Notes under the pieces: generated by a model
Told to the model about the DNA's origin: nothing
What the model saw: only the letters and a program-made list of their open reading frames with translations
The model's database searches: none
Shown: positions 20,064 through 39,307 of the stretch, in pieces
How positions within the stretch are numbered: the stretch's first letter is position 1
Layout: every line of letters starts with the position of its first letter
Made by a program: the position numbers and the translations under genes
NCBI GenBank assembly: GCA_034530875.2
Contig: JAVRCJ020000018.1
Location: 1-64,000 of the forward strand
Direction of reading: 5' to 3'
Source: Nostoc sp. DedSLP01
Lineage (GTDB): Bacteria > Cyanobacteriota > Cyanobacteriia > Cyanobacteriales > Nostocaceae
DNA length: 64,000 nt

Positions 20064-20090
20064 AAAGGGTCAAATTTTGGAAATAAGTTT
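20064..20090 (-). promoter_or_regulatory. Shared 27-bp operator/promoter motif (copy upstream of SDR-NHLP-GMC unit)
   Basis: Minus strand: AAAAAATAC-AAACTTATTTCCAAAATTTGACCCTTT, then TTTTAA-N17-TAAAGT. Confidence 0.6.
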
Positions 20091-20514
20091 GTATTTTTTC
20101 GGTTTTTCATTTTTAAGTTTTATTTTTAGTTTTGAGTTGATTAAATCAAAACTTAGAATTTTTAAAATCTTAAAACATTTCCAAAAAGTTGTTAATTATA
20201 GATTGTTCATTTCAAAGATTAACTGTATAAAGAGAAAAATTTAAAGTTGCTAATTACAAACTTAAAAATATTAGCAAACTGCTGGATATTGAAATTGCAT
20301 AATTAGGGCAGCAAAATGACCACTCCAGAAAATTTTTATATGTCACCCATCGTGTTTATTTTCTTGTTGTTTGGGGCTTGATGGGAATGCAGCAATACCG
20401 TTGGTTAACGATTTTTTTGTTGAGGCAGGCTGTTCTTGAGCAGGGGGAGAATTATTCCTCCCCTGCTTCCCTCAAATGTCTTGGGAGTGCAAGCGCCTTT
20501 ACTAAAATTTATCT

Positions 20515-21543
20515 TTATTGTGGCGATCGCTTGTTCTCTTTAGGACGGATATCCAACCCTGGCACGCCTATATCTAAACGAAATATCCCTCCATAACCGT
20601 CTTCTGCTTTTATCCCACCTGTCACAAATATCTGGTCGAGCTTCGGGCCTGCAAAAGCACAGTTGCTAGTGGTGAGATTGCCAGTTGCATATCGACGGAT
20701 CAGCTTGCCCTCAGGATTGAGAACTTCTAGTTGACCCATACCATAGTGAGCCACGTAGAGGTTCCCTGTTGCATCTTGACATATCCCGTCAGGCTTATTG
20801 TCTATTTGCTCTCCCTGTTTGATAGGAAGTTCAGCAAAAACTTTATGGGAACTCACTTTTCCCGGTGAAACTACGTTGTAGACTAAAATTTGATTCTTAT
20901 TGCTTTCGCTAACAAAGAGCCGCTTGCCATCTGGAGTCAGGTGAATGCCATTGGCAAAAGCTATTCCAGTAGCGACTGAGTTAATTTTCCCTCTAAAATC
21001 CACATAGTAAACTGCGCCATTGGGGGTTTCGGAGTTGGAATTGCCGGAGTCAGTGAAGTAAAAACTTCCTGCTTGGGAATCAATAGTAATATCATTGGGA
21101 TACTGCAAAGGCTTGCCATTAAATTCCTTGGCGATCGCTTTTAGGAGATTACCATTGCTATCTAGCTGCAACACCGAATTTTGAGCAGCGACAATATGAG
21201 TACCGTCAGATAAAATCTTATGACCATTTGCACCAGGGACTTTTGCCCAGATTTTAGTCAACCCTTCAGGAGTTAAAACTGTGATTGTCCCGGCTTTAGT
21301 TTGGGAGAAATAGAGGTTACCCGCACTATCTAAGACAATTCCCTCGGAATATTTGTCGCTTTGTATAACCTTCGTTGGTGAGATAATATACGCTGGCGGC
21401 AGTGTAACTTCAGGGCTAGCAGCTACAGCTACATCCAAGAAGCGCGCGGTCTGTGTCAGGCTAGAGTCTTTAGTACTATCTCGGCAAGACACTAGCAGCA
21501 AAATTTGTACGCAGCTCAAAATAATCAAAGAAAATTTACGCAT
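20515..21543 (-). CDS. SMP-30/gluconolactonase/LRE family lipoprotein
   Basis: Lipobox-like LLVSC; SEG, PND, ANG and PDG motifs of the 6-bladed SMP-30 propeller. Confidence 0.88.
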   Translation of the reverse strand: MRKFSLIILSCVQILLLVSCRDSTKDSSLTQTARFLDVAVAASPEVTLPPAYIISPTKVIQSDKYSEGIVLDSAGNLYFSQTKAGTITVLTPEGLTKIWAKVPGANGHKILSDGTHIVAAQNSVLQLDSNGNLLKAIAKEFNGKPLQYPNDITIDSQAGSFYFTDSGNSNSETPNGAVYYVDFRGKINSVATGIAFANGIHLTPDGKRLFVSESNKNQILVYNVVSPGKVSSHKVFAELPIKQGEQIDNKPDGICQDATGNLYVAHYGMGQLEVLNPEGKLIRRYATGNLTTSNCAFAGPKLDQIFVTGGIKAEDGYGGIFRLDIGVPGLDIRPKENKRSPQ

Positions 21544-21756
21544 ATAGCAAAAAAACCTCTTTTTGTAAGTAAGTAGGTGTGAATATTTATTGCTGGGATA
21601 AAGTAAGAGGCAAAAGTGAAGAGTGCTTTAGTCTAGTTCATTTCTATTCACATAGTTCGGTTTTTTCCAATCGTTTTACTTAGTTCTTTTACTAGTTGTT
21701 TTAAATTTCAAATAGTTTTTGATAGTTGAAATGGAAACTTTAGTTTGCCGGATATT

Positions 21757-23526
21757 TTAAAAGAAGAAGCTTGTTCGCAAACCACCTGTAAAAATCGTAC
21801 CGTTGCTTTCTTGATTGGCAGGATTAGTGATTATTTGTACTGAAGGCGTAATCCGAATGTTGTCACCAATTGGTAGATTGTAAAATGCCTCAATGTTGGT
21901 CTGTGTGGCGTTGCCGACTGCACTCTCAATAAATGGCTGGGCTGCGGCAATGCCAGCCAAAGAGCCTGGTACAAAAAGGTCTCGACAGGCAAGCCCAGCC
22001 ATCCAGTAAGTGGGCTTAATGTCGCCAAAATCTGTGTCACTGTAACTGCCATAGCCATAACGACCAAAGATAGCTAGTTGTTGCGAAAGTGCTAATTCAA
22101 CATTTGCCCCAAAGACATCAAATCGACCATCGAATAGATTACCCCCACTGTATTGCAGGCGTATCGCTAACGCACTAGAGGGTGAATACTCCAGTTCAAC
22201 GGTGGTTTGATTGGGATCTTTGAATAGGCCGCTTTTGCTATCCCCATCGGAATACAATAAATTAGCTAGAGGCGATACACTAGCACGAGAACTTTGACTA
22301 TTGGGACTAGGGTTGGCAGCGTCCCCAGCTACATAGACTGCTCGCATTGTGAATGGCCCTGCACCTGGGTTCCACTCCATGACTGCCCCGCCTCCCAAGT
22401 TTAAAACAGGCAGAAGAATATAATTATTGGTTAATGCCAGAGTCGAAAAGTCAAAATAGTCCAGGTTAGCGTAGGTGTTTTTGTCAACGTAGTCTGAGGC
22501 AGTAATTGTCGGGCCCAGGGTTACTTTGAAGTCTCGAAACAAGGTAAAACTGTAATTGAGACGAGCGATCGTAACTTCGTCGTTGATACCTGAGCGATAC
22601 GAAAAATCTAGGGCACTACCAAAATTAGGCTCCAAAAATCCAGCCGGATTATCGTTCCCTAGACCGCTACCTGAGTCTAAACGAATGAGGAGCAGATCGC
22701 TTCCGTTAAAGCTGGTGTTCAGATTTAGAGAAGCACGATAAACAAAGGTGGCATTTGGGTTCTCATTGGCAATTTCTTTACCTTTGGGATCGATAATGCG
22801 ATCGCCGCTAAAGCTGCCTCCAGTAATAGCAGTTACAACTAACCCTGTAAGCTTGGTGGTAGTAGAAAACTGATTGGATTCTAGATTTGCTGTTTTAGCT
22901 TCTAGATTGTCTACACGACCTTGCAAAGTTCCCAGTTCCATCGCAAACTCTTCTTGCAGTTGTTGCAATGTTAATAAGTCTTCACGGGTTACTTGCGTTT
23001 CTATTCCAGATGCAATTAACTCTTGTACTCGCTCAAGTGCTGCTTTGATTCCAGCAGCAAACTCATAACGGGTCATAGTTGAATTGCCTCGGTAAGTGCG
23101 ATCGGGATAGCCTGCAATAATTCCATAACGCTCAATCAAAGATTGAAGCGCCTGGAAAGCCCAGTCACTAGGTTGCACATCTGCAAGTTGGCTCACCGAG
23201 GTAACTTGAGCCTTAGAAGAAAGTGTCTGAGCCATCAAGCTAAATATCTGCGAAGTAGGTTCCAATGCTTCAATAACTCTGGTTTGTACTTCAACAGTAG
23301 GATTTACAACTGGCTCAGAACTATGAGTAAGTTGTGATATTTCAGCGAGCACAGAAGCACTTTGTAAAGTTAGACAAAGGATGCTTACACCTTGAGCAAG
23401 GGATAAATAACTATTTCTCATTGCTTGTAGATTTAGATGTGCTAGCTTGTAAAAAATCAAAATTGTTGCTTTTTTGCCTAAAGGACAAAAATCCTTTACC
23501 AATTGAAGTTTTGAAAACACAGTCAT
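21757..23526 (-). CDS. SLH-domain outer-membrane porin (OprB/iron-uptake porin type); likely start 23421
   Basis: VTSVSQLADVQPSDWAFQALQSLIERYG SLH domain, FSTTTKL, C-terminal LRTSFFF. Confidence 0.92.
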   Translation of the reverse strand: MTVFSKLQLVKDFCPLGKKATILIFYKLAHLNLQAMRNSYLSLAQGVSILCLTLQSASVLAEISQLTHSSEPVVNPTVEVQTRVIEALEPTSQIFSLMAQTLSSKAQVTSVSQLADVQPSDWAFQALQSLIERYGIIAGYPDRTYRGNSTMTRYEFAAGIKAALERVQELIASGIETQVTREDLLTLQQLQEEFAMELGTLQGRVDNLEAKTANLESNQFSTTTKLTGLVVTAITGGSFSGDRIIDPKGKEIANENPNATFVYRASLNLNTSFNGSDLLLIRLDSGSGLGNDNPAGFLEPNFGSALDFSYRSGINDEVTIARLNYSFTLFRDFKVTLGPTITASDYVDKNTYANLDYFDFSTLALTNNYILLPVLNLGGGAVMEWNPGAGPFTMRAVYVAGDAANPSPNSQSSRASVSPLANLLYSDGDSKSGLFKDPNQTTVELEYSPSSALAIRLQYSGGNLFDGRFDVFGANVELALSQQLAIFGRYGYGSYSDTDFGDIKPTYWMAGLACRDLFVPGSLAGIAAAQPFIESAVGNATQTNIEAFYNLPIGDNIRITPSVQIITNPANQESNGTIFTGGLRTSFFF

Positions 23527-23545
23527 CTCTACAATTTGGATTACC

Positions 23546-25165
23546 CTAATCCCTAGCTGCTACAAACTGAGAATGACTGTTTGTTTGAAAAGAATATCTT
23601 CGTTTGTGAATATCTTCCGCAATTATTTCGTCCATACAGCGTTCTGCGATCGCTGCAATAGTGAAGGAAGGATTGGTACATGCAGTAGGGCCAGGAATCA
23701 GCGCACCATCAACAACATACAAACCTTGATAATTGAATACCCGACCGTATTGGTCGCACACTTTACCCATGACAGCGCCTCCTAAAGGATGGGCACAGAT
23801 AGAGGCATTAATGTCTGTTGTCGGTTTTATAGTAGGGGTAGTAATGGAACCATCAAGACTTGTGTAAGTAACCTTTGCAGCTAATAAACCATCTCTATTT
23901 TCTTGTTCGGGCCAGTGTAACTTGACATTATCTGTAGAGCGATCGTAGGTGAAAAATCCTTTTGGTTTTGTCATAGCCAAAGTCAAACACCTTTGCGTTC
24001 CCGGGCCGCCAGACCAATCCTCCAGATTCATCAGACTAATCGGATTTTGAGTATTATTTATATTTTCCACAACGGCACCTGATGGGCCCCCTTTACCAAT
24101 TACAGGCTTTGGTAAATTTGAACGTTCGGCAACCATGTCTCCATTATTATTCCAATTTTGTCCGACACTAGCTTTTAACCTAGATAATGTGCCTTTTTCT
24201 TTAGCCTTGAGCAAAAGTTTAGAAGTTCCTATTGAACCAGCTGCTAAAAACAAATAGCGACAGGTAAAAGATTTTGACTGAATCAATTCTCCACGTTCAT
24301 CAATTTCATGACATTTAACTCGATAGCCACGTCTCGGTAATTCAGAAATTTCTGTAACTATATGTAAAGGCAAAACTTTTACTAATCCAGTTTGTTCGGC
24401 TTGAAGTAAGTAATTGCGATCGAGGCTATTTTTTGCTCCACTATTAATACCAAACCAATGTTCGCCATTAATAGCAGAAGCAATTTTTTCTCCTCTAATT
24501 TCTTGACGAACTATATTCCAATCAACAGCTAAATCTAACAACCGAGTAGGAAAACCTGCTTTCTTTCCGTTTTCCAGTAAAAATCGAGTTGTTTCATAAT
24601 AATCAGTCTTTAAAATGTCATCTGGCATTGGTGCTGCCTTTAACATTGAACGAACTCGAGGATAGTAAATTTCATCCATTTCCTTGTAGCTAATTGAACG
24701 AGGAAAAGTTCGATAAAATAACTCCTTATTGGGTTGGTAAATAATCGCATTGTAAACTAAAGAACCGCCACCAACGCCAGCACCAGCTAAAACAGTAATG
24801 CCATCTTCATTTAAAGTCTCTAAAACTCCTGTATACACGTCTACAGACTGACCAAATAAATTTGTTGAACTTAGCCAAGCACTTCGACCATCAGGATTGC
24901 GGAAATTAGCAAAAGTGTTTCCATCAGAACGAATATTCCAACGACGACCTCGCTCTAATACTAATGTTTGAATACCAGCTTGAGCTAAACGTAGAGATGC
25001 AATAGAACCACCAAAGCCACTACCTATAATTAGCGCTTCTGTATCTTCATAATTACTAGTAGCGCTAGTTCGATAAATAGGAGTTCCTACTGAAACTGCT
25101 AAACCGGTACCGAAAAGGGCGGCACTTTGAAGAAAACGACGACGGCGATACAAATTATTAAGCAT
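23546..25165 (-). CDS. Tat-exported GMC oxidoreductase, cholesterol-oxidase-like (copy 2)
   Basis: RRRRFLQ, GSGFGG, AHPLGG, TNPSFTIAAIAER. Confidence 0.9.
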   Translation of the reverse strand: MLNNLYRRRRFLQSAALFGTGLAVSVGTPIYRTSATSNYEDTEALIIGSGFGGSIASLRLAQAGIQTLVLERGRRWNIRSDGNTFANFRNPDGRSAWLSSTNLFGQSVDVYTGVLETLNEDGITVLAGAGVGGGSLVYNAIIYQPNKELFYRTFPRSISYKEMDEIYYPRVRSMLKAAPMPDDILKTDYYETTRFLLENGKKAGFPTRLLDLAVDWNIVRQEIRGEKIASAINGEHWFGINSGAKNSLDRNYLLQAEQTGLVKVLPLHIVTEISELPRRGYRVKCHEIDERGELIQSKSFTCRYLFLAAGSIGTSKLLLKAKEKGTLSRLKASVGQNWNNNGDMVAERSNLPKPVIGKGGPSGAVVENINNTQNPISLMNLEDWSGGPGTQRCLTLAMTKPKGFFTYDRSTDNVKLHWPEQENRDGLLAAKVTYTSLDGSITTPTIKPTTDINASICAHPLGGAVMGKVCDQYGRVFNYQGLYVVDGALIPGPTACTNPSFTIAAIAERCMDEIIAEDIHKRRYSFQTNSHSQFVAARD

Positions 25166-25306
25166 ATACCTCTAAATTTTGAACTATTTGATTGGACTAA
25201 ATGACTATATTTATGAAGCAAAAAATTATATTTAATACCAATTATTAAATCTTCGATTTTCAGGTATTAAATATCATTGAATATATTCAGGTAATAAACG
25301 AAGTAT

Positions 25307-26890
25307 TTACCAGCCTCTGTGTTTTATTTTTGGGATAATTTCGTCCATAGCGCGCTCTGCTAAACCTGCAATAGTTAAGAAAGGATTTGCACCTCCGGCA
25401 GAACCAGGAAGAAGCGCACCATCTACGACATAAAGCCCTTTATAACCGAATACCCGCCCATATCCATCGCACGCTTTGCCAATAGGAACTCCACCTGAAG
25501 GATGAGCAACATTCTGGTAAACAAACTCTGTTGAAGGTTGTTTGCCATCTTTAAAATTGGCATCATCAAGGATTTTATACGTCAGCTTTGTAGCATCTAT
25601 ATGTTGTTTATTGTTGTCAAGGTATGAAGGCCAGTATAAGTTCACTGAATCTGTTCTTGTATCGTATTTAAATACTCCATTAGCTTTTGGTATACCCATA
25701 CCAAGACACTCTTGCGATCCTATAGGATTATTCCATTGTGGATAATTCATCAGGATAGTTGGACTTATGGGATTATCATAGTGTTCAAGAATAGCACCTG
25801 CAAATCCTCCTAAATCTTTGATAGGTGGTAAATTTGAGCGATGGCCAACAGTATCGCCATTAGTTCCCCAATTTTTACCAACATACTCGTTTAACTTAGG
25901 CAACTTACCTGTCGCTTTAGCCTTAACTAAAAGTTTGGAAGTGCCTATAGAGCCAGCAGCTAAAAACAAATAACGGCAGGTAATAGTTTTAGTTTCAAGA
26001 ATTTGTCCTGATGTATTTATCCGATTGTATGAAACTCGATAAAGTTTCTCGTGAGGTAATTGAGAGATTGCCGTTACTACACACAAAGGCATAATTTCAA
26101 CATATTTAGTCTGCTCTGCTAGACGTATGTAGTTGCGGTCTAGGCTTTTCTTAGCTCCACTATTGCAGCCGAACCAAATTTCTCCATCAATTGTAGAAGC
26201 TACTCTAGTTCCAGCTATTTCATCGCGAACTATATTCCAATCAACAGCCAAATCTATTAAATAATTTTTAAATCCCGCCCTAGTTGCATGTTCTTGAAAT
26301 AATCGAGTTGATTCATAGTATTTAGTAGCTAAAATGTCGGCTGGAATAGGGCTTGGTTCCAACATTTTCCGAACGCGATTAAAGTAAACATCAAGCAATT
26401 CGTCATAGTCAATTGACCGAGGAAAGACTTGATAAAATACATAACTACTTTTGGGTACTACAACACCAGCATTATTAACTAGCGACCCACCTCCAACTCC
26501 AGCACCACACAATGGATTTGCACCGTATTCTCTTAAAGTTTCTAAAACTCCTGTATATTTATCTACAGAATCTCCGAATAAAGTTGTCGAACTCAGCCAA
26601 GCAGCTCGACCATCAGGCTTACGATAAGTTGCAAAAACGTCTTGATTATTTTGAGATGGGATTTCCCAACGGCGGCCGCGTTCTAGTACTACTGTTTGAA
26701 TACCAGCTTGTCCCAAACGTAGAGCAGCAACAGCTCCACCATAGCCACTACCAACAACAACAGCTTCTACATATTCATCAGTAATACTCGCTCCGGTACG
26801 ATTAGAAGTAAGTACTGAAGTCGCTAGACTAGCACTGAATAGAGTGGCACTTTGAATAAAATGACGACGGCTAAAAGATTTACGATACAT
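25307..26890 (-). CDS. Tat-exported GMC oxidoreductase, cholesterol-oxidase-like (copy 3)
   Basis: SRRHFIQ, GSGYGG, AHPSGG, ANPFLTIAGLAER; GAGG RBS. Confidence 0.9.
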   Translation of the reverse strand: MYRKSFSRRHFIQSATLFSASLATSVLTSNRTGASITDEYVEAVVVGSGYGGAVAALRLGQAGIQTVVLERGRRWEIPSQNNQDVFATYRKPDGRAAWLSSTTLFGDSVDKYTGVLETLREYGANPLCGAGVGGGSLVNNAGVVVPKSSYVFYQVFPRSIDYDELLDVYFNRVRKMLEPSPIPADILATKYYESTRLFQEHATRAGFKNYLIDLAVDWNIVRDEIAGTRVASTIDGEIWFGCNSGAKKSLDRNYIRLAEQTKYVEIMPLCVVTAISQLPHEKLYRVSYNRINTSGQILETKTITCRYLFLAAGSIGTSKLLVKAKATGKLPKLNEYVGKNWGTNGDTVGHRSNLPPIKDLGGFAGAILEHYDNPISPTILMNYPQWNNPIGSQECLGMGIPKANGVFKYDTRTDSVNLYWPSYLDNNKQHIDATKLTYKILDDANFKDGKQPSTEFVYQNVAHPSGGVPIGKACDGYGRVFGYKGLYVVDGALLPGSAGGANPFLTIAGLAERAMDEIIPKIKHRGW

Positions 26891-27151: not shown

Positions 27152-27178
27152 CAATGGTTAAATTTTTGGTTAAAGGTT
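27152..27178 (-). promoter_or_regulatory. Shared 27-bp motif (copy upstream of GMC3-GMC2-porin unit)
   Basis: Minus strand: AAAAAATGC-AACCTTTAACCAAAAATTTAACCATTG, with TTGCAA-N17-TAAATT. Confidence 0.65.
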
Positions 27179-27361
27179 GCATTTTTTGGAATTTACTTAT
27201 TTTGGCTCTTCACGCCATCATTTATCTCTAAATTAAGAATAAGTTATGATATATTGCAATCTTATTTTGATAATGATATAGCGATAAAGTTTAAAAAAAT
27301 TAGTACAGAAGTAGTTAAATTTAAGAAATATTTAATTTCTATAATTAGAGCAAAAAAATAC

Positions 27362-27388
27362 AAACTCTCTCCGAAAAACTAACCTTTG
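27362..27388 (+). promoter_or_regulatory. Shared 27-bp motif (copy upstream of a decayed ORF)
   Basis: AAAAAAATAC-AAACTCTCTCCGAAAAACTAACCTTTG, with TTGCAT-N17-TAATCT. Confidence 0.6.
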
Positions 27389-27435: not shown

Positions 27436-27667
27436 ATGCCTCTTCAACTTCTGGGTAAAACCCGGCTTGCATCGTTTCTGAAGAACATACTATTTAGCGG
27501 GGCTTTATCCATTAACTCAAACGCCACAATAAATTTTAACTTAGTTTCCTGGTAAAACTGTAGGTAGCTGGGGCTGGCAATATAAGTCTACAGCTTTAAC
27601 GCCAGAGGTTGGCGATCGCCTCAGAGCAATGACTGAAACTTATGGACGGGCGACTCACCATCAATAA
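27436..27667 (+). pseudogene. Possible decayed gene fragment
   Basis: ATG at 27436, then after a 1-nt shift FNFWVKPGLHRF*RTYYLAGLYPLTQTPQ*ILT*FPGKTVGSWGWQYKSTALTPEVGDRLRAMTETYGRATHHQ*. More GC-rich than its flanks and just downstream of a motif copy. Confidence 0.35.
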
Positions 27668-28100
27668 AATTAGAACAAACTAGCCGCAAGACTTAATTGA
27701 TACGACATCAAGGAGCTTGTGGCTGGCTCAATTTTAGTCAATTTGTAATGGTAAGGGGCGATCGCGTCCTTCAACCTTGATACTCGGCCACTTTGGATCG
27801 AAAGTTAGGTTTTCTAGCTATTATTAATAATCGGAAAAAAGCTTTGATTACAAAATAATGCCATAGTTCAGCAATCAGTAAGTGAAAGTTATAACCTATA
27901 GCGATTCCCAAGCAAATGAGGTATATAAATTTTTAAGGAAGCAAAGCATTGTGCCTTTACCTTATACTTCACTATAACGAGATATGCTATATAAAAACAT
28001 ATTATTTTTAAACTTTTTTCACTCGAAAGTATTAGTTAAACTAGAAAGTTTATTCTCAGTAATATTTGAGTTTTTAGCGCTAGAATTACCAAATAAATAC

Positions 28101-28233
28101 AACCTTATAACGAAAAATTACCCATTGCAATTTTGTTTTATTTTTTGAAAATCATATAAGGTTTAATACATAAAAAAAGTAAACTTTCTACAAAATATTC
28201 ACCCTTGTATTTATAGTTTCATCTCTCTAAACT
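28101..28233 (+). promoter_or_regulatory. Two copies of the shared motif (28101-28127, 28181-28207) and promoter of the DJ-1 operon
   Basis: AACCTTATAACGAAAAATTACCCATTG and AAACTTTCTACAAAATATTCACCCTTG, 80 bp apart. The second gives TTGTAT-N17-TAAACT. Confidence 0.65.
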
Positions 28234-28309: not shown

Positions 28310-28993
28310 ATGATACCTAGATCCCTTGGTGGGAAAAAAATTGCTGTTCTTCTCGAAAGTGAGTTCATTCCTGAAGAAATCGAAGCTTATCAAAAGCGCT
28401 TCTCAGAACTCAAAGCAACAGTACATCTGATGTCTAGACTCTGGGATCAGCCAAGCGTTCGTTTTTTCAGTGATGAAGATACGGGCAATACACCTCGAAC
28501 AATAGATGTAGACATTGATTTTCAAAACGTAGATGTTAACGACTACGCGGCTGTAATTATGTCGGCTAACTATACCAGCGTGCGTCTGCGTTACTTTGAG
28601 CCACCAACAGGTCAGCCAATTAGTGGCGAACAAGTTCGCACTTCACCGGCTGTACAGTTTTATGCCAAGGCAATGGCAAATCCCAAGATTATTAAAGGCG
28701 CACTTTGCCACGGCCTTTGGATAGTAACACCAATACCTGAATTACTCAAAGGCCGAAAAGTTATCTGCCATGAGGTTGTCCTTGCAGACATTATCAATGC
28801 TGGCGCAGTTTATACAACATCACCTACAGGTGTCGTGGTGGATGGCGACCTTGTTACTGGTCGCTCAAAACACGAGGTTGAACCATTCATTGATGCGATT
28901 ACCGAACAAATTCAACAGTTAGCTGTTGCCACTAATCGTTTCTCAAATAGAAGGCCTAATCCCTCTGTTTCAAGACTAAGAGTTGCAAGCTAA
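28310..28993 (+). CDS. DJ-1/PfpI family protein
   Basis: KKIAVLLESEF..EE, nucleophile elbow ALCHG, VVVDGDLVTGR. Confidence 0.9.
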   Translation: MIPRSLGGKKIAVLLESEFIPEEIEAYQKRFSELKATVHLMSRLWDQPSVRFFSDEDTGNTPRTIDVDIDFQNVDVNDYAAVIMSANYTSVRLRYFEPPTGQPISGEQVRTSPAVQFYAKAMANPKIIKGALCHGLWIVTPIPELLKGRKVICHEVVLADIINAGAVYTTSPTGVVVDGDLVTGRSKHEVEPFIDAITEQIQQLAVATNRFSNRRPNPSVSRLRVAS

Positions 28994-29858: not shown

Positions 29859-31600
29859 GCTTGACCAAAAAGAGCAACGAAAAGCCTTTAATGGCTCAAA
29901 GAAATGGTCGCTTTGCAATCATCGAACAACTTCTGGCAGATGGTATAAACTACATGTTTGGCAACCCTGGCACTGTTGAGCAGGGGTTTCTAGACGCGTT
30001 AAAGGACTATTATCCAGAATTTAAATATATCTTTGCATTGCAAGAAACAATAGCAGTAGGTGCAGGCGATGGCTATGCCCGCGCCACCAAAAAACCTACT
30101 ATCGTGCAACTCCATAGCGGAGTCGGTTTAGGCAATGGCATAGGCATGATTTATCAGGCCATGCGCGGTCATGCACCGTTAGTAGTATTAGCTGGCGAAG
30201 CTGGCATCTGCTACGATGCGATGGATGCTCAAATGGCAGCAGATTTGGTCAGTATGGCTAAGCCTGTAACAAAATGGTCAACTAGGGTAGTCGATCCTTC
30301 TTCTTTGTTACGCGTGCTACGTCGAGCCATCAAAATAGCTGCTACGCCCCCTATGGGGCCGGTGTTCGTCTCCCTACCGATGGATATCCTTGATGCTGCT
30401 AATTATGAAGAGGTTGTTCCGACTTCTTTCCCAGTAACACGGGTTGCCCCCGAACCCGACCAACTAGCAACAGCAGCAACTTTACTGGCTGCTGCTAAAC
30501 ATCCCCTGATTATCATGGGCGATGGCGTAGCTTTTTCCGATGCCCAGGCTGAATTGACAGATGTAGCCGAACTTCTCGGCGCCCAAGTCTGGGGAGCAGA
30601 CTCATCGGAAGCGAATATGAGTGCTACACATCCTCTGTTCGGCGGGCTGCTGGGTCACATGTTTGGCGATGATAGCCGTCGCGTAACATCACAAGCAGAC
30701 GTAATATTGATTACTGGAACTTACGTTTTTCCAGAGGTATTTCCGGCGCTGTCTGGAGTTTTTGCCCCGTCAGCGAAAGTTATTCACATTGACTTGAATA
30801 CATACGAAATAGCGAAGAACTTTCCAGTGGATCTGGGACTGCTTGGCGATCCAAAAACTACGCTGAGCAAGTTAAGCACTGTTCTGAAGTCAACCATGAC
30901 ACCCGAACAGAAGCAAGAGGCTTCTAAAAGGGCTAGTCAAATAGCTGAGAGCAAGAACCGGGAATCAGCTGCTCGACTTGAGGCTGACAAAGCAGTTCGA
31001 GATGCAGTACCTCTGCACATGACTCGTTTTGCAGAAGAATTGGCTGCCCATTTGCCAGCAGATGCAATTATTTTCGATGAAGCCATTACCAATTCTCCAG
31101 AACTTTGTCGGTACATCCCACCGATAAAACTAGGGCAATATTTCCAAACACGAGGCGGTTCGCTTGGTGTTGGTATTCCGGGAGCGATCGGTATTAAGCT
31201 GGCTAATCCAGATAAAACTGTGTTCGGGTTCACAGGTGATGGCGGGAGTATGTATACTATTCAAGCCCTCTGGACTGCTGCCCATCACAACATAGATGCC
31301 AAATTTGTCATCTGCAATAATCACAGCTATCAAATCTTGAAGCTCAACATTTTGCACTATTGGCACGAACAGGAAATACCAGAACACGACTACCCATCCT
31401 CTTTTAACCTGTGCAATCCAAATATCAATTTCGCTGAATTAGCAAACTCTTTGGGAGTTGAGGCTGTTCGGGTAGAGACGCCAGATGCGATTGCTCCAGC
31501 TATCCAAAAAGCATTGAATCACAATGGCCCATTTTTGATTGATTTAGTACTGACAAACGAAATTGTCGGTACAAAGATTGGCGTTAAGTGCGGTCAATAG
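29852..31600 (+). CDS. Thiamine-diphosphate-dependent enzyme (benzoylformate-decarboxylase/acetolactate-synthase-like)
   Basis: FGNPGTVE, LQE...GDGYARAT, ThDP motif GDGGSMY...CNN. Confidence 0.92.
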   Translation: MVSLTKKSNEKPLMAQRNGRFAIIEQLLADGINYMFGNPGTVEQGFLDALKDYYPEFKYIFALQETIAVGAGDGYARATKKPTIVQLHSGVGLGNGIGMIYQAMRGHAPLVVLAGEAGICYDAMDAQMAADLVSMAKPVTKWSTRVVDPSSLLRVLRRAIKIAATPPMGPVFVSLPMDILDAANYEEVVPTSFPVTRVAPEPDQLATAATLLAAAKHPLIIMGDGVAFSDAQAELTDVAELLGAQVWGADSSEANMSATHPLFGGLLGHMFGDDSRRVTSQADVILITGTYVFPEVFPALSGVFAPSAKVIHIDLNTYEIAKNFPVDLGLLGDPKTTLSKLSTVLKSTMTPEQKQEASKRASQIAESKNRESAARLEADKAVRDAVPLHMTRFAEELAAHLPADAIIFDEAITNSPELCRYIPPIKLGQYFQTRGGSLGVGIPGAIGIKLANPDKTVFGFTGDGGSMYTIQALWTAAHHNIDAKFVICNNHSYQILKLNILHYWHEQEIPEHDYPSSFNLCNPNINFAELANSLGVEAVRVETPDAIAPAIQKALNHNGPFLIDLVLTNEIVGTKIGVKCGQ

Positions 31601-31639
31601 TAGACCAGAATTTTTACTCAATTAAAAGGGAGAAAAGCA

Positions 31640-32089
31640 ATGACAGTAGCTAAAATAGCACCTCTAACAGAATCAGAAATCAAACAACTGGCAGCAGATT
31701 GGTATTTAAAATTAGATGTTCACGCTCCGCTAGAAGATTATATTCCTTTTCTAGCTGAAGATGGTTTAGAAATGCGCTTTCCTGAAGCTACAGTTTATGG
31801 TTTTGATGGATTTAAAGGTTGGTACGATCGCGTTATCAGGATTTTCTTTGATGAAGTCCATACCTTAAAGCAAGTCAACGTTCAGCCTTCGGGAGATGAG
31901 GCGACTGTTCAAGTCATCGTCAAATGGGAAGCTAGCGTCTGGAACCCACCAGCAGCCAAAAGTCAACGCATTATTTTGGATGCTTATCAAACTTGGATCG
32001 TGAAGCGATCGCTTCAAACAGGTAAGCCAGTGATTGCAACCTACATTGTTGATTCACTTAGTTACTATGAAGGGTCTGCTCGCCTTTAA
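31640..32089 (+). CDS. NTF2/SnoaL-like protein
   Basis: 149 aa, WYLKLDVH...LEMRFPE...G.DGFKGWY...FFDEVH; GGGAG RBS. Confidence 0.8.
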   Translation: MTVAKIAPLTESEIKQLAADWYLKLDVHAPLEDYIPFLAEDGLEMRFPEATVYGFDGFKGWYDRVIRIFFDEVHTLKQVNVQPSGDEATVQVIVKWEASVWNPPAAKSQRIILDAYQTWIVKRSLQTGKPVIATYIVDSLSYYEGSARL

Positions 32090-32215
32090 ATAAGTTTGCA
32101 GACATCCGCAAAAAAATGAAGTTTTGGGGCGCATATAACCACCGGAAAAATAATTATGTCTAATTATTGGCGCTCCATACTCATCAGTTCTATAACAATT
32201 ACAGGAGATATAAAA

Positions 32216-32590
32216 GTGACAGTTTCAACAATTTCACCCGGACGGCAATTCTTTGACAAACATCTAGAAACTATTGCTGCCGGAAAAATCGATGAAATGG
32301 TGGATAGAGATTATGCAGAAGATGCTGTATTAATCACCTTTTTCAATGGCTTTGAAAATACACCTGCACCAATCACAATTACAGGGCGTGAAAATATCAA
32401 GACATTCTTTCACGATTACCTGAGAACGATTGAATACATTGATATTAAATCTCTGGACTTTACAGAAGCAGAAAACGCTATTTTTTTCCAAGCAAAATTT
32501 AACTGTAAACTTGGTCTAGTATCAGTTGGAGATGCCTGGACTATTCGTAACGGACAGATTGCTTATCACTTTGGTTTTTGGGCTTCTTAA
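32216..32590 (+). CDS. NTF2/SnoaL-like protein
   Basis: GTG after AGGAG; DYAEDAVL...GRENIKTFF...DAWTIRNGQIAYHF. Confidence 0.8.
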   Translation: MTVSTISPGRQFFDKHLETIAAGKIDEMVDRDYAEDAVLITFFNGFENTPAPITITGRENIKTFFHDYLRTIEYIDIKSLDFTEAENAIFFQAKFNCKLGLVSVGDAWTIRNGQIAYHFGFWAS

Positions 32591-32798
32591 AATAGTATAA
32601 ATTTTAGGCGATGGCGGTTGTTTTTAGTTAAAAACTAGTGCCGACTAAAAATGAACTTCATTCCTATCCTTGCCCTAACCTCTTTCAGTCTTATACCAAT
32701 TCTCTAAAATTCGGCAACAGATTCAAACTTTGAAACCTAGATACAATCTGAATTTCTTAATTGCGAATTGGTATTAATCCCCTACATATAGGACTACC

Positions 32799-33620
32799 AT
32801 GAGTACACCAATAGAAAAATTGCTTGTTTCTCCCATCAGCCAGCTCTATAAAGAACATATCGGTTTTATCAAAGCTAAAAATGTTGATGGTTTGTTAAAT
32901 CAGTATGCTGATGATGCTCTGCTCATTAGCACTTTAACTGAAGATCGCCAACCGCTTTACGTACAAGGCCGTCAAGCACTAAAAGAGTTTTTTGAAGGCC
33001 GGATTTTTGGTTTAGAAGATTTTGAAATCAGGCTTAATCAATGGGCTGAAACCGAAAACACGCTGATGATGGTCGAGGAGTTAACAACTACAAGTAAGAC
33101 CGGTGAAGCCGGTAGTGTTGAGTTTTACGATAACTGGTTTTTGCAAGATGGAAAAATTGCTATCCACTTTGCTGGTGTAATTCAGTATCCAGATAAAACT
33201 TATGTAAATGCAGGGACAATTACAACAGAAGTACCTGCATCACCATTGGGCAAGTTGTATAAAGAGCATATCGGTTTTATTAAAGCGAAGAATGTTGATG
33301 GTTTACTCAACCAATATGCTGAAGATGTCTTGCTTATTAGCACCTTAACTGAAAATCGCAAACCGATTTACGTGCGCGGTCGCCAAGCACTCAAACAGTT
33401 CTTTGAAAGCCGTATCTTCAGTTTAGAAGATTTTGAGGTCAAGCTTCACCAGTGGGCTGAAACTGAGAACGCGCTGATGATAGTTGAAAACTTGAAAACC
33501 AGAAGTGTCAATGGCGATGTTGGCGAGGTGAGTTTCTATGATAACTGGGTGTTGCGCGATCGCAAAATAGCCGTTCACTTTGCTGGTGTAGTTCAGTACC
33601 CTGATGGAACCTACGCATAA
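32799..33620 (+). CDS. Tandem two-domain NTF2/SnoaL-like protein
   Basis: Two near-identical halves LYKEHIGFIKAKNVDGLLNQYA.D.LLISTLTE...FYDNW.L.D.KIA.HFAGV.QYPD. Confidence 0.85.
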   Translation: MSTPIEKLLVSPISQLYKEHIGFIKAKNVDGLLNQYADDALLISTLTEDRQPLYVQGRQALKEFFEGRIFGLEDFEIRLNQWAETENTLMMVEELTTTSKTGEAGSVEFYDNWFLQDGKIAIHFAGVIQYPDKTYVNAGTITTEVPASPLGKLYKEHIGFIKAKNVDGLLNQYAEDVLLISTLTENRKPIYVRGRQALKQFFESRIFSLEDFEVKLHQWAETENALMIVENLKTRSVNGDVGEVSFYDNWVLRDRKIAVHFAGVVQYPDGTYA

Positions 33621-33657
33621 TTAAGTTTACTTTGTTATATCAGTAAGGACTGAAGTA

Positions 33658-34095
33658 ATGGCTTTGCTAAAAGTTTCCCAAATGGCAATTAGTTGCAAAG
33701 ATCCGATCGCAACTGAAAAGTTCTACACAAAATATTTCGGCTTTAAGCGAGCAAGGGTTGCACCAGTTGGCAATAACGAGCAGATTGTCTTTCTGAAATT
33801 GGGTGATATGTACCTTGAACTCTTCCAGGCAAAAGGAGAAACCCCCGTCCCTTTAGCCACTCAAGACGGACCTACCTATCCAGCTTGGCGGCATTTTGGT
33901 TTTCAGGTTGATGATGTTGATGCTAAGCTGGCTGAAATCGGCAAAGATGCAAAAGTGACCCTTGGGCCGCTCAACTTTGATAGTTTTATTCCTGGGTGGC
34001 GCACGGTTTGGGTATCCGATCCAGATGGCAATATCGTTGAAATTAGCCAGGGATACGTCGATCAGGAGAATCCACCACAATTGTCAGCAAATTGA
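33658..34095 (+). CDS. VOC/glyoxalase family protein
   Basis: FYTKYFGF, YLELF, HFGFQVDDVD, SDPDGNIVEI. Confidence 0.92.
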   Translation: MALLKVSQMAISCKDPIATEKFYTKYFGFKRARVAPVGNNEQIVFLKLGDMYLELFQAKGETPVPLATQDGPTYPAWRHFGFQVDDVDAKLAEIGKDAKVTLGPLNFDSFIPGWRTVWVSDPDGNIVEISQGYVDQENPPQLSAN

Positions 34096-34237
34096 GGGTA
34101 ATTGCAACTGAGCTATATACAGCATTCCTCAATCGCAGATGAACAAGTTCAAAATTGCGATCGATTAACTAAATTTTGTTCAAAACTTAAATGAATTGCT
34201 GTATATAGCTTAATTATTGATTGGCACACAGAAACTC

Positions 34238-35080
34238 ATGAATACTTTCACAAATTGGAAAACCCTTAATTGGCCTGAATATGGTGCAGAATTGCTGGGA
34301 ACTGCTTTCAATATCTTGGTTGGATTCAGTATAATTACCTTCAATTTTGGTAAAGGCTTGCCTATGGAGCATCTCATCCCAGCAGTGAGTCCTCGTTTAT
34401 TAATTAATGGTCTCATTTTCGCTGGAAGTGGTGCATTATTTAGCATTTCACCTTTAGGAAAACTGAGTGGTTCGCACCTTAACCCTTGTTTATCATTGGC
34501 ATTCTTTTTGCAAGGTAAAATGCATAAACAGGACTTGATTGGATATATTTTCAGTCAATTTATTGGCGCAATTATTGGCACATCTTTAGCATTAGCTTTG
34601 TGGGGTAAATACTTGATAAGTGTCAATTATTGCATCACTTTACCTGGGATAGGCTATCCGTTATGGTATGTATTTCTAGCTGAAGTTTTCATGACATTTC
34701 TGTTAGTGCTGTCCATTTTTATCTTCTTGAGTCATCATCAGCTATTGCGGTGGACACCCCTAATGGTATGGGTTCTGGTGGCAACTATGGTTTGGTTAGG
34801 AGCGCCAATTTCTGGTACTAGTTTGAATACAGCACGCAGTATGGGCCCTGCTTTCGTAGCATGGTCTTGGCAAAACCAATGGCTTTATTGTATTGCATCT
34901 CCACTTGGTGCATTAACTGCTGTAGGAGTTTTTCAACTGATAGCTATGGGCGAACGCGAAGTTTTAACAGGGAAACTTTTTCATGTTCCCAATTATCGTT
35001 GCATTTTTAAAAATGTTAAAGTGCCACATTTACCAAAGCATCAGCAAAATTCAAGAATAATTCACAGTTCTGACTCCTGA
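34238..35080 (+). CDS. MIP/aquaporin family channel with non-canonical NPA boxes
   Basis: AELLGT, SGSHLNPC, AEVFMT, SGTSLNTARS; six hydrophobic helices. Confidence 0.9.
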   Translation: MNTFTNWKTLNWPEYGAELLGTAFNILVGFSIITFNFGKGLPMEHLIPAVSPRLLINGLIFAGSGALFSISPLGKLSGSHLNPCLSLAFFLQGKMHKQDLIGYIFSQFIGAIIGTSLALALWGKYLISVNYCITLPGIGYPLWYVFLAEVFMTFLLVLSIFIFLSHHQLLRWTPLMVWVLVATMVWLGAPISGTSLNTARSMGPAFVAWSWQNQWLYCIASPLGALTAVGVFQLIAMGEREVLTGKLFHVPNYRCIFKNVKVPHLPKHQQNSRIIHSSDS

Positions 35081-35343
35081 ATGGTGAATAAAAATGAACA
35101 GGTAATCTACCCTTACACCCCATCAGTAAAGACGCGATTAATCGCGTCTCTACTTTCTTTTTCCAGCTAGACTCACCAGTATATTGAAAGCCACTACATC
35201 TGCTCGTATTCGACACGATTTAGTGTGATGTTTCACCGGATATTAGACCTTTTGCATAAATATTTCTTGTATCGCGCAGAGGCGCAGAGACGCAGAAAAG
35301 AGAAGACCTGAAAACATTAAAATTCTCTATAAGGAGAAAACCA

Positions 35344-36117
35344 ATGAAGAAACTAGAAGGTAAGGTAGCTTTAGTAACTGGTAGTAGTGGAGGAATTGGC
35401 CAAGCTATTGCCGTACATCTTGCCGAACAAGGTGCAGATGTTGTGATTGATTACCGCTCTCATCCTGAAGGCGCCGAAGAAACTCTGTCGAAAGTAGAAG
35501 CTGCTGGCAGTAAAGGTTTAACTGTTAAAGCTGATTTGAGTTTAATTAGCGACATCCGTAAACTTATAGACGAAGGTATTCAATACTTTGGCAAGTTAGA
35601 CATTCTAGTGAACAACGCTGGAATCGACGGTCGGAATGCTGATTTCTGGAACATTACCGAAGCCGACTATGATGCAGTGATTAATCTCAACCTCAAAGGG
35701 ACATTTTTCGCAACTCAAGCAATAGTGCAGCATTTCATCGAAACCAAGCGAACTGGCAAAATCATCAATATTAGCTCTACCCATGAGGAAATAGCATTCC
35801 CACATTTCACTGCCTATTGTGCCAGCAAGGGCGGTGTAAAAATGATGATGCGTAATTTAGCAGTTGAGCTTGGGCCTTTGGGAATTACAATTAACAACGT
35901 GGCTCCTGGAGCAATCGAAACACCAATTAATACTAAGCTGTTAAACGATCCAGAAAAATTAGCAGCCTTGTTAAAAAATATTCCCTTGGGTCGTTTAGGC
36001 AAGCCAGAGGATATCGCACCTATAGTTGCTTTCTTAGCTTCAGCTGATGCTGACTACATCACAGGCGCAACCTTCTATGTAGATGGAGGATTGAGCCGAA
36101 ACTATCACGAGCAATAG
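35344..36117 (+). CDS. Glucose-1-dehydrogenase-like SDR
   Basis: TGSSGGIG, IDYRS, SSTHE, YCASKGG, APGAIETPIN, IPLGRLG. Confidence 0.88.
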   Translation: MKKLEGKVALVTGSSGGIGQAIAVHLAEQGADVVIDYRSHPEGAEETLSKVEAAGSKGLTVKADLSLISDIRKLIDEGIQYFGKLDILVNNAGIDGRNADFWNITEADYDAVINLNLKGTFFATQAIVQHFIETKRTGKIINISSTHEEIAFPHFTAYCASKGGVKMMMRNLAVELGPLGITINNVAPGAIETPINTKLLNDPEKLAALLKNIPLGRLGKPEDIAPIVAFLASADADYITGATFYVDGGLSRNYHEQ

Positions 36118-36368
36118 GTACTATCACTAGAGAAGCGGCTTACCATTCGCGTAGCGTCTCATCAAGAAGAGAACGCTACCACCAAGACGGCTTTCCTTCA
36201 GACACGCGAACGCGAAACGTCTCGTTCGCGTCTTTGAAGGAGAAGAACGCCAACGATTCCTAGAGCGTGTAAGTTTTGCATTAATCTAAAATCGGCATAG
36301 ATAGTGTTCTTTGAGCCACTTAAATCAGCCTTGTGCTAAAGACTTTTAATCCAAAATCCTAAATTGCT

Positions 36369-39029
36369 ATGACCCAAGAAGAAGCAAGATTGGCAGCAGA
36401 CCGCGATCGCACAGCCTACTGGAAACGATGGGGTTCCTATCTGAGCGAACGGCAGTGGGGAACGGTGCGGGAAGACTATAGCCCTAATGGTACCGCCTGG
36501 GAATTCTTTCCCCACGACCATGCCCGCTCCCGTGCTTATCGCTGGGGAGAAGATGGGATTGCAGGAATTTCTGATAATCATCAGCGACTATGTTTTGCGA
36601 TCGCTCTCTGGAATGGTGAAGATGCAATCCTCAAAGAGAGACTTTTCGGCCTCACAGGGAATGAGGGGAATCACGGTGAAGATGTTAAAGAATACTACTT
36701 CTACCTGGATAACACCCCGACTCATTCCTACATGAAATATCTTTATAAATATCCCCAAGCTGCTTTCCCATACAGCCAGCTGGTAGAGGAAAATCACCGC
36801 AGAGGTCGCCAAAGTCCAGAGTTTGAATTAATCGACACAGGTATATTTGACCGAGACCGCTATTTTGATGTCTTCGTTGAGTATGCTAAGGCTTCACCCG
36901 ACGACATTTTAATTGAAATCAGTGCCATCAACCGAGGCCCCGAAGCAAAAACGCTGCATTTGCTACCAACGCTTTGGTTTCGCAACACCTGGTCTTGGAC
37001 TGGCGATCGAGAAGAAAAACCCTGGTTAAAAATTAGCCAATCCAACTCTGACCTCAGCACCATCGAAGCTTATCACCCTTCTTTAGAAACCCGATGGTTG
37101 TATTGTAATGAAACTCCAGAACTACTATTTACAGAAAATGAGACTAATAATCAAAGATTGTTTGGGGTCAGCAATGCTTCGCCATACGTTAAAGATGGAA
37201 TCAATAATTATGTAGTCAATGGGCAAAAAACGGCTGTCAATCCCAATCGCATTGGTACTAAGTTTGCAGCTAATTACAAATTGCACATCGGTGCAGGCGA
37301 AACTAAGACAATACGATTGCGGTTAAGTGACGTACAAAATTTAATTGCACCATTCGGGGCTGAATTTGACACAGTTTGGCAAGAACGCCAGCGCGAGGCA
37401 GATGAATTTTATCAGCGAATTTGTCCGTTTTCGTTGTTAGAGGATAGGCGTAATGTGCAGCGGCAAGCATTTGCTGGGATGTTATGGAGCAAACAATTTT
37501 ACTACTACGTAGCTGAACAATGGCTAAAAGGCGATCCGACTGGCCCGCAGCCGCCAACATCTCGGCTCAATGGCAGAAACCATGAATGGTTTCATTTATT
37601 TAACGACGATGTGCTTTCTATGCCCGATAAATGGGAATATCCTTGGTTTGCGGCTTGGGATTTAGCTTTTCATGTAATTCCTTTGGCCATGATTGACCCG
37701 GATTTTGCCAAGCTGCAACTGAGCCGCTTGACACGGGAATGGTATATGCATCCTAACGGTCAACTACCAGCTTATGAATGGGCTTTTGGTGATGTAAATC
37801 CGCCGGTTCATGCTTGGGCAGCATGGCAAGTTTATCAGATTGAGCAAAAAATCTATGGTCGTGCGGATAAAAAATTTCTGGAGAGTGTTTTTCAGAAATT
37901 ACTGGTGAACTTTACTTGGTGGGTTAACCGGAAAGATTTTGAGGGCAAAAATATCTTTCAGGGTGGCTTTCTGGGTATGGATAATATTGGTGTCTTCGAT
38001 CGCAGCGTTCAATTACCAACTGGCGGGTATTTGCAACAAGCAGATGGCACAAGTTGGATGGCGATGTATTCTCTGAATATGCTAACTATCGCCCTAGAGT
38101 TAGCGAAAGAAAATTCTACCTACGAAGATATCGCCAGCAAGTTTTTCGAGCATTTTTTATACATTGCTGATGCCATGAACGGCGTTGGCGATGCCGAAAT
38201 AGCGTTATGGGATGAAATTGATGGCTTTTACTACGATGCTCTACATTTACCTGATAATCATCAATTCCCGATGAAAGTGCGATCGCTTGTGGGGCTAATT
38301 CCATTATGTGCAGTCAGCATTTTAGAATCACAAACCTTAGAACAACTCCCAGGCTTTAAGCAACGCACGCAATGGTTTCTCAAAAATCGCCCTGACTTAA
38401 CCCGAAATATTGCTTGTATGCAGAAACAAGGAATTGGCGAGCGTCGGCTGTTAGCCATCGCTTATCCAGATAAACTCCGTCGCATCCTAGAAAAAATGTT
38501 AGATGCAACAGAATTTTTCGGCCCTTATGGTATTCGCTCTGTTTCTAAAGTTCATGCCGACCATCCTTACGTTTTGACCGTAGATGGTCGGCAGTATCGA
38601 GTAGATTACGAACCTGCTGAGTCTAGCACAGGAATGTTTGGTGGTAATTCCAACTGGCGGGGCCCGATTTGGTTTCCCATTAATTATTTACTACTAGAAT
38701 CGCTACAAAAGTTCTATCGCTACTTCGGCGACGATTTCAAAGTTGAGTGTCCCACTGGTTCAGGTCAAATGATGACACTTAAGGAAGTATCAATTGAATT
38801 AGCTCAAAGGCTGATCCAAATTTTCCTAACAGATGAGTCTGGTAGACGACCTTTTTATGGTGGAACAGAGAAATTCCAAACTGACCCGAATTGGCGCGAC
38901 CTAATTCTATTCAATGAATACTTTCATGGAGATAATGGTGCTGGTATTGGTGCTAGCCATCAAACTGGTTGGACAGGTTTAATCGCCAAATTAATCCAGC
39001 AATGTGCAGAACAAGTGTTATCAGATTAA
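36369..39029 (+). CDS. GH63/MGH1-like glycoside hydrolase (glucosidase)
   Basis: [66 protein letters not shown]. Confidence 0.9.
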
Positions 39030-39068
39030 TTTCCCAATTTTGATAAATTACTAATTTTCATGAACACT

Positions 39069-39096
39069 GGATGCGTTAGCTCAGGCTAACGCATCC
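39069..39096 (+). terminator. Stem-loop after GH63 gene
   Basis: GGATGCGTTAGC-TCAG-GCTAACGCATCC, a perfect 12-bp stem. Confidence 0.6.
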
Positions 39097-39280
39097 TAAA
39101 GTTTGTATATCTCAAGGTGAGTTCGCTTAATTACTTATAAATCCAGAAACATCCCACCTGCCTTACCAAAGGGAAGGTTGGAGAGGGGTAAGCGAGGACT
39201 TTAATTATAACTAATCATCCAAACTTGATATTATATAATTCTTGCCAATATTCTTATATACTTCTTATCAAAAAAAATAC

Positions 39281-39307
39281 AAACTTTCCCCAAAACTTAA
39301 ACCCTTG
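39281..39307 (+). promoter_or_regulatory. Shared 27-bp motif (copy upstream of glgX-AGE unit)
   Basis: AAAAAAATAC-AAACTTTCCCCAAAACTTAAACCCTTG, with TTGCAA-N18-TAAAAT. Confidence 0.65.

Follow-up and report, generated by a model that had tools for sequence, protein, structure and literature searches.

Six 38-bp elements over predicted -35 boxes, probable AraC operators shared by the two arms of a Nostoc gene island

The stretch analyzed here, the first 64 kb of contig C18 in the 8.57-Mb genome of Nostoc sp. DedSLP01 (64,000 nucleotides, from now on the window), contains between about 13.5 and 49.5 kb a gene island with two divergent arms, and the question that it raises is what could bring both arms under a single control. 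Six copies of a short element found along the island appear to provide the answer. We consider it very probable that they are 38-bp operators lying over predicted -35 boxes, bound by two copies of an AraC-type protein that would activate both arms together, a reading that comes from sequence comparison. An initial annotation of this DNA had proposed a signal shared by both arms, which our analysis confirms, in the form of a 27-bp motif at 20064 and 27152 (reverse strand) and at 27362, 28101, 28181, and 39281 (forward strand), and all six copies are indeed found there. The proteins of the window reach 95% identity to Nostoc records and the GC content of the island (0.409) equals that of the genome. 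G-numbers are used below for genomes of relatives, L-numbers for fetched loci, and C-numbers for contigs of the genome under study.

Two of the sites are on the reverse strand. Operator 1 (20064..20101) has a -35 box TTTTAA (20066-20061) and a -10 box TAAAGT (20043-20038), ahead of a run of genes for a short-chain dehydrogenase (SDR), an NHLP leader protein, a GMC oxidoreductase, a second SDR, and a TrbI-like protein, while operator 2 (27152..27189), with TTGCAA and TAAATT (27131-27126), precedes the GMC-GMC-OprB-gluconolactonase run. On the forward strand we find operator 3 (27351..27388; TTGCAT and TAATCT), operator 5 (28170..28207; TTGTAT and TAAACT at 28228-28233), ahead of the DJ-1/PfpI operon, and operator 6 (39270..39307; TTGCAA and TAAAAT), ahead of glgX. 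Operator 4 (28090..28127, forward strand) is a distal copy situated 80 bp before operator 5. The promoter spacing described earlier for five copies holds, with TAnnnT located 17 nt after the -35 box at the sites 20064, 27152, 27362, and 28181 and 18 nt after it at 39281, and at neither distance at 28101. In relatives, a -10 box accompanies 11 of the 19 sites orthologous to operator 4 and every one of those orthologous to operator 5 (24/24).

Operator 3 faces malQ (4-alpha-glucanotransferase) in relatives and is an orphan in the window because this gene has been mostly deleted, the last 40 codons being what is left of it (27545..27664, forward strand). Beyond them an M24 peptidase gene is reduced to its last 27 codons (27737..27817, reverse strand), the remainder having been deleted too. 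The malQ loss amounts to approximately 1.5 kb, and copies of malQ and of the M24 peptidase gene are also present on contigs C8 and C13. A hidden RNA or small gene behind this site was considered and rejected, the stretch being made of the fused ends of these two genes; Rfam at gathering scores gave no match within the window.

A consensus built from 80 sites in relatives reads C.AAA.AATRCAAMCTT-N4-CRAAA.WTtRACCMTTG; after it come YA, a run rich in T, and TAAACT. The 27-bp motif is therefore real but incomplete, since the element extends upstream by another 11 bp to a length of 38 bp, as two 17-bp halves separated by 4 bp, the last 3 bp overlapping a TTGYA -35 box. Both halves contain an upstream and a downstream sub-box. 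The initial annotation had placed the half-sites AAACTT and ACCCTT 20 bp apart; these downstream sub-boxes fit best at 19 bp (profile correlation r 0.75) or 20 bp (0.44) and poorly at 21 bp (0.04), and what had been missed is that the upstream sub-boxes repeat at 21 bp with r 0.83. For whole halves the correlation is 0.49 at 21 bp vs. 0.44 at 19 bp. Reading the element as an inverted repeat was discarded, with a best profile correlation of only 0.32.

The element is highly specific to the island. When each copy was held out in turn and the 27-bp core alone was used, five copies were outscored by nothing except the six sites (0 in the reversed genome), while the copy at 20064 was weak, with 32 genome positions vs. 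18 in the reversed genome. Extending the model to 41 bp (the core plus 12 bp upstream and 2 bp downstream) placed each of the six held-out copies in the top 6 of the 17.1 million genome positions, and the best non-member site reached 18.2 bits. A matrix made from 37 sites of relatives with <62% identity to any window site recovered all six at 31.8–47.6 bits, the next position scoring 19.0. No seventh copy exists among the 17.1 million positions of the genome, and the regions upstream of 16 other genes of the window gave best scores of ≤5.2 bits.

In the fetched loci of relatives we collected 135 distinct sites scoring >26 bits. None of them falls inside an open reading frame (0/135), all that could be assigned face the downstream one (131/131), 125 within 600 nt of it, and TAnnnT is found at exactly 17 nt in 111 of the 135 (at 16 nt in five and at 18 nt in another five). 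The claim that the sites always point to the adjacent transcription unit is thus borne out in relatives and fails in the window at 27362, which faces no intact gene. The genes behind the sites vary among genomes (DJ-1, SDR, glgX, GMC, NHLP, malQ, P-type ATPase, OprB, and the conserved protein u188), that is, the element precedes different genes in different genomes, as an operator does. Contigs assembled from RNA of relatives (word share 0.06–0.07) include right-arm contigs that begin at 28252 (three runs from one sample) and 28254 (a second study), 12–14 nt past the predicted start at 28240. They have not been used as support, because contigs cannot show starts and the malQ contig reaches back beyond the start predicted for that gene.

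The likely binder is AraC1 (11639..12310, forward strand), whose position is conserved in relatives and which consists of an AraC DNA-binding domain, with no N-terminal sensor domain, and a C-terminal tail. AraC2 (44249..44908, forward strand), between the AGE-STAS and response-regulator genes, is a duplicate with 83% identity in which both recognition helices are unchanged. The window has the two flanking paralogues noticed initially, most relatives a single gene; AraC2 must be a recent duplicate, given that two full-length copies are found in only 2 of 45 genomes. HTH_18, the double helix-turn-helix (HTH) domain, scores 77 and 80 bits in the two proteins (cut-off 33.6), and the predicted structure shows a seven-helix domain at residues 36-139 (pLDDT 85–94). 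The domain is homologous to that of Escherichia coli AraC (2k9s, E 9e-8) and to those of the MarA/SoxS/RamA group (7bef, 1bl0, and 7w5w). About 35 residues precede it, with neither an N-terminal ligand-binding/dimerization domain nor a receiver domain. Its closest relatives are cupin-AraC proteins (70–77% identity in the DNA-binding domain); relatives of AraC1 from the same clade keep the cupin domain and, judged from this comparison, the island AraC is a form that has lost its sensor domain. The regulator beside scyABC in the same genome belongs to the same cyanobacterial AraC domain family, with 55% identity to the island AraC.

The C-terminal tail contains a helix (44750-44812 and the equivalent in AraC1) conserved in 76 homologues. 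A local profile matched this helix to the N-terminal end of an ISKra4-like transposase open reading frame (L154:11556-12173) with E 3.6e-10, and it is likely to be a domesticated piece of transposase. A search for the tail among proteins of 120-384 aa retrieved AraC orthologues only, and the homodimer prediction for the tail (residues 155-219) scored 0.09, which is not evidence either way.

The distribution of the element largely follows that of the protein. We searched for the pattern with up to two mismatches, using the reversed pattern as a control (0 throughout), in 45 genomes picked via the DJ-1 gene (45 of 58 loci), in a partly overlapping draw of 60 unselected relatives, and in 300 genomes from the whole class, and found it in 29, 10, and one of them, respectively. 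In the DJ-1-picked set the sensor-less AraC is present in 25 of the 29 motif-bearing genomes vs. none of the 16 without the motif. Among the 10 motif-bearing genomes of the 60-genome draw, eight have the sensor-less AraC, G050 has a form from the same clade that includes a cupin domain, and G017 has neither.

A second line of evidence comes from the same frame with other sub-boxes beside the genes of the cupin-AraC relatives. We masked the variable sub-boxes, leaving the TTG and the pair of A-rich boxes in the model; with the -10 box added, this model ranked seventh in the genome under study a site ahead of scyA, in a cluster where ScyA, ScyB, and ScyC were confirmed. Around 30 other AraC-domain genes the masked model matched 22 loci (37 matches) vs. 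0/30 in reversed sequence and 26/300 in random windows, and the -10 box, which was not scored, was present in 21 of the 37 matches by AraC genes vs. 0 of 28 background matches. With 20 held-out loci (16 of them with an AraC gene), nine were matched (19 matches; one in reversed sequence), and all five held-out scyA promoters, which come from loci fetched around AraC matches, had two to three sites.

The letters of the sub-boxes change with the second recognition helix of the neighboring AraC protein. CAAMCTT/ACCMTTG is found with the helix DRRHF, ACCAATY/TCYCTTG with D[PTA]GHFIRLF, GTKAGT/GTGCATTG with Q[NHY]EGHF, and TGACAC/TT[CG]ATTG with QDVSHF, that of the scytonemin regulator. Over 27 loci the Mantel rho between sub-box and helix was 0.55 for the second helix and 0.27 for the first. 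In a protein tree of the whole domain (36 chosen rows, helices unmasked) the clade with the DRRHF helix had a support of 96/95. Where a genome has two or three AraC types (that under study, G083, G063, and G076), the own sub-box of each type is found beside its gene, and the long-form DRRHF proteins of G050 (with a cupin domain) and G096 are accompanied by the sub-box of the island; it is these two observations that link the site to the protein. Together with the co-occurrence, the recurrence of this architecture with changed sub-boxes at other AraC genes supports the initial proposal of an AraC operator, and we regard AraC as the well-supported candidate binder of the 38-bp sites.

Ahead of scyA, two to three frame sites are found at conserved distances upstream (~240, 370–490, and 630–850 nt) in eight loci (L147:8982 and L147:9110, corresponding to C18:134981 and C18:135109 of the same genome, and L163, L165, L206, L211, L214, L215, and L216). 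We predict that they are operators of the scytonemin response regulator. Two further frame sites (L148:8243 and L148:8409, own contig C3) are situated between a receiver-AraC gene and a cluster whose translations have the appearance of a FAAL/ACP/polyketide synthase (PKS) one. Repeated sites of the GTKAGT/GTGCATTG type accompany receiver- or PAS-like-AraC genes in L132, L133, L152, L157, and L158, and in L132 they lie ahead of NHLP precursor genes.

A rival regulator that the initial annotation had missed is a pair of proteins with HTH, NB-ARC, and WD40 domains that travels with the island. WD1 (21..2915, forward strand; NB-ARC/pentapeptide/WD40) has its N-terminus cut by the contig start. WD2 (3690..7274, forward strand) combines a weak HTH_3 (17.4 bits, E 0.0046, below the cut-off of 23) with NB-ARC (43.7 bits, cut-off 23.5), pentapeptide, and WD40 regions, and appears more likely to be an upstream sensor than the binder. 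An oligomer of these proteins, which belong to the STAND (signal transduction ATPases with numerous domains) type, could occupy the 38-bp sites with one HTH per helical turn, leaving the araC gene as a passenger or co-factor. The N-terminal HTH of WD2 would fit such a role, as would the information peaks along the element, which recur about every 10.5 bp, and STAND activators such as MalT are known to act on arrays of boxes. WD2 orthologues are found in 25 of the 29 motif genomes (by eye, among the matches listed, with no tree), as often as AraC; since both travel equally with the island, co-occurrence alone cannot choose the binder.

What decides against the WD pair as binder is, besides the presence of the same architecture with AraC-matched sub-boxes at other clusters such as scyABC, the behavior of genomes and loci in which the two candidates separate. 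G075 and G096 have the sites and the AraC clade and no WD2 orthologue among the matches listed, while the sister islands L222 and L223 (WD paralogue, malQ, aquaporin, SDR, and GH63, with no such AraC nearby) have neither the 38-bp site nor a second element that we call motif B. This motif (CMASTYAAGATAGWAAACTTAAG) occurs in two conserved blocks between the haem-oxygenase-like gene and u188, in opposite orientations (9456..9478, forward strand; 10210..10232, reverse strand), both candidate sites of the STAND pair. Motif B is present next to the module in 23 of the 25 genomes with WD2 vs. 0 of the four motif genomes without it (again among the matches listed), in a search at three mismatches where the reversed control gave 0–3 chance matches per genome, and it is found again beside a WD paralogue in G063. 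Binding of the 38-bp sites by the WD pair thus seems improbable to us; the pair tracks motif B rather than the 38-bp element, suggesting a two-step cascade in which it would act on the araC gene.

The genes of this putative cascade form a conserved module made of WD1, WD2, a divergent gene for a haem-oxygenase-like redox protein (7663..8496, reverse strand, divergent from u188-araC1), u188 (10887..11453, forward strand), and araC. The 188-aa protein u188 is encoded directly upstream of AraC1 in most relatives. It shows many invariant W, C, and H residues, has no Pfam or NCBIfam family and no Atlas match, and among its 70 relatives, none of them named, there is a distant one with SnoaL domains fused to it and another with a peroxidase. 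A remnant of a ScyA-related thiamine diphosphate (TPP) enzyme gene is also found here (8724..8912, reverse strand), and in L112, L121, L122, and L123 an intact operon of ScyA-related TPP enzyme, KAS III, and SDR replaces the haem-oxygenase-like gene, an exchange suggesting swappable cassettes for the synthesis of a signal. The pair of TPP enzyme and KAS III presumably resembles that of furanolide synthesis. A similar TPP operon lies beside a WD paralogue on contig C29 of the same genome (L229).

As for the mechanism that would operate at the 38-bp sites, each AraC copy would read one 17-bp half, its first HTH contacting the sub-box that is conserved (upstream, C.AAA.AAT) and its second the one that varies (downstream), and the promoter-proximal copy would recruit RNA polymerase, as AraC does at araI2. 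With the sensor domain lacking, the amount of AraC rather than a ligand may set the output, a weaker part of the model. Equally weaker is the part played by the HTH-NB-ARC-WD40 pair, which might control u188-araC through motif B; that araC is controlled in this way, through its expression, we hold to be evenly balanced.

Several observations weigh against this interpretation. Pairing of the AraC copies has to do without an N-terminal domain, the two downstream sub-boxes are out of the 21-bp register, and the pairing of helices with sub-boxes is presumed. Sites without the sensor-less AraC are found in G064 (a 5.0-Mb assembly), G072, G081 (with just a stop-bearing remnant of u188), G093, and G284 (a single 35-bit site), and the scores of the sites have not decayed in these five genomes. 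Some genomes belong to both the 45- and the 60-genome set, and closely related ones do not count as independent. With regard to the frame, the set of 30 loci contains two from the genome under study that were already known as matches, conservation of the upstream sub-box is built into the masked model, the held-out AraC loci other than those of scytonemin were matched in just 3 of 11 cases, and just one of the 19 held-out matches had TAnnnT at 17 nt. Finally, the covariation of helix and sub-box is not independent of descent, because the sub-box type follows the protein clade.

An AraC-domain protein could also bind the sites and repress, blocking a near-consensus -35 box, or need a partner such as u188. 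The -35 TTGYA and -10 TAAACT are close enough to the sigma-70 consensus to fire without an activator, the protein lacks the usual sensor domain, and u188 adjoins it in most relatives; but the fixed upstream placement with a 3-bp overlap is the geometry of activation described for E. coli AraC (PMC11983282), related regulators are positive, and in L119 and L182 AraC occurs without an adjacent u188, so that we give this possibility little credence. That the element is an extended promoter (A-tracts resembling UP elements, for recognition by RNA polymerase or by an alternative sigma factor) or a local duplication with no dedicated factor is most unlikely, in spite of its richness in A-tracts and the well-kept sites in G072, G081, G093, and G284, where AraC was not found, as it is confined to the island, is absent from 50 of the 60 relatives, and changes its letters with the type of the neighboring AraC.

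Activation by AraC copies, the preferred reading, has close parallels. At araI1-araI2 of PBAD, E. coli AraC activates from imperfect direct-repeat halves 4 bp apart, the proximal one over the -35 box (PMC11983282), and its DNA-binding domain is homologous (2k9s). The island sites differ in sequence, in overlapping the -35 box by 3 bp rather than 4, and in being six over two arms, and the island protein differs in lacking the N-terminal ligand/dimerization domain and in having a C-terminal tail; no evidence of looping was found here. MarA and SoxS are controlled through their expression by an upstream sensor, and MarA binds a single box. The MarA/SoxS/RamA proteins are likewise sensor-less with a homologous domain, and this control by expression level is the logic proposed for the island AraC, which is nevertheless longer (219-223 aa with an 80-aa tail), falls far under the NCBIfam cut-offs of that subfamily (31–41 bits for 219 aa vs. 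174–250), and would have two tandem half-sites per promoter and a local regulon, unlike MarA. MalT-type STAND activators share with WD2 an NB-ARC ATPase, a repeat sensor, and putatively an HTH, and the candidate boxes of motif B, in both orientations between divergent genes, are also reminiscent of theirs; in WD2, however, the HTH is N-terminal, XRE-like, and weak, the sensor is of WD40 type, and there are two tandem paralogues.

Among cyanobacterial regulators, the scytonemin one (Npun_F1278 type) is of AraC type and required for its operon (PMC9127174). It shares with the island AraC the domain family, the link to a cluster as a positive regulator, and the operator architecture at scyA, and the regulators beside scyA differ in having a receiver domain, a kinase partner, and a different second helix and sub-box. 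AraC_PKS1 of Nostoc punctiforme, a cyanobacteria-specific AraC, induces its own cluster when overexpressed, and its homologues mostly adjoin biosynthetic clusters (PMC9324945); it would be another cluster-linked positive regulator and a presumed member of the same domain family.

The genes that the operators would control are arranged as follows. The distal run of the left arm (13494..19841, reverse strand; SDR, NHLP leader protein, GMC oxidoreductase, SDR, and TrbI-like protein) is the target of operator 1, and the proximal run (20515..26890, reverse strand; two GMC oxidoreductases, OprB porin, and gluconolactonase-like protein) that of operator 2. The right arm (28310..39029, forward strand), the target of operators 4 and 5, encodes two DJ-1/PfpI proteins, a TPP enzyme, three SnoaL-like proteins, a glyoxalase, an aquaporin, a glucose-dehydrogenase-like SDR, and a GH63 glucosidase, and operator 6 is followed by the glgX isoamylase gene and a fusion of AGE epimerase and STAS (39591..43920, forward strand). 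These functions (glucan debranching and hydrolysis, sugar oxidation, lactonase, porin, and carbonyl-handling enzymes) suggest a pathway from glucans to oxidized sugars. As judged by eye, the three GMC oxidoreductases (within 16348-26890) have signal sequences of twin-arginine-like type at their start, and the gluconolactonase has a lipoprotein-like signal, which points to periplasmic sugar oxidation.

Many relatives carry the TrbI/VirB10-like protein (13494-15086, reverse strand) in the left arm, where its neighborhood has no further conjugation genes. The gene at 18325-19047 (reverse strand) encodes two NHLP leader domains, has no modifying enzymes nearby, and in relatives is often placed directly behind a copy of the motif. 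A core of AGE, DJ-1, TPP, SnoaL, and glyoxalase genes, without the motif, appears also in Planctomycetota, Myxococcales, Gammaproteobacteria, and Verrucomicrobia (L053-L073).

A literature search, which covered few subscription journals, found no account of the 38-bp motif, the family-wide frame, the scyA sites, motif B, the island, or the cascade. Direct-repeat operators of AraC are well known in general, and an earlier description of the motif may exist.

The exact sites and the predicted transcription starts, near 20031 and 27119 on the reverse strand and near 27421, 28240, and 39341 on the forward strand, make this regulon directly testable. Regulators of scytonemin, ribosomally synthesized and post-translationally modified peptide (RiPP), and PKS clusters are known to be essential or activating, their binding site not being described in the text covered, and the frame precedes several RiPP/PKS clusters besides scyA. 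In filamentous cyanobacteria a single AraC family, with receiver, PAS-like, cupin, or no input domain, might read the shared frame C.AAA.AAT...21 bp...TTG on the -35 box through a helix-specific sub-box code, complemented in the island by loss of the sensor, capture of a transposase helix, and a cascade in which the WD pair senses a small molecule produced by neighboring genes (the haem-oxygenase-like enzyme, or the ScyA-related TPP enzyme with KAS III in relatives) and switches on araC through motif B; this whole scheme is possible, though we lean slightly against it. If true, the shared frame would predict where the scytonemin regulator and the activators of cryptic RiPP/PKS clusters bind, and the sub-box code, the first readable one for the switching on of such clusters in these cyanobacteria, would allow the activator of each silent cyanobacterial cluster to be predicted and orthogonal inducible promoters to be built. 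Should the NB-ARC-WD40 pair act at motif B, the abundant NLR-like proteins of cyanobacteria would gain a job as transcription regulators.

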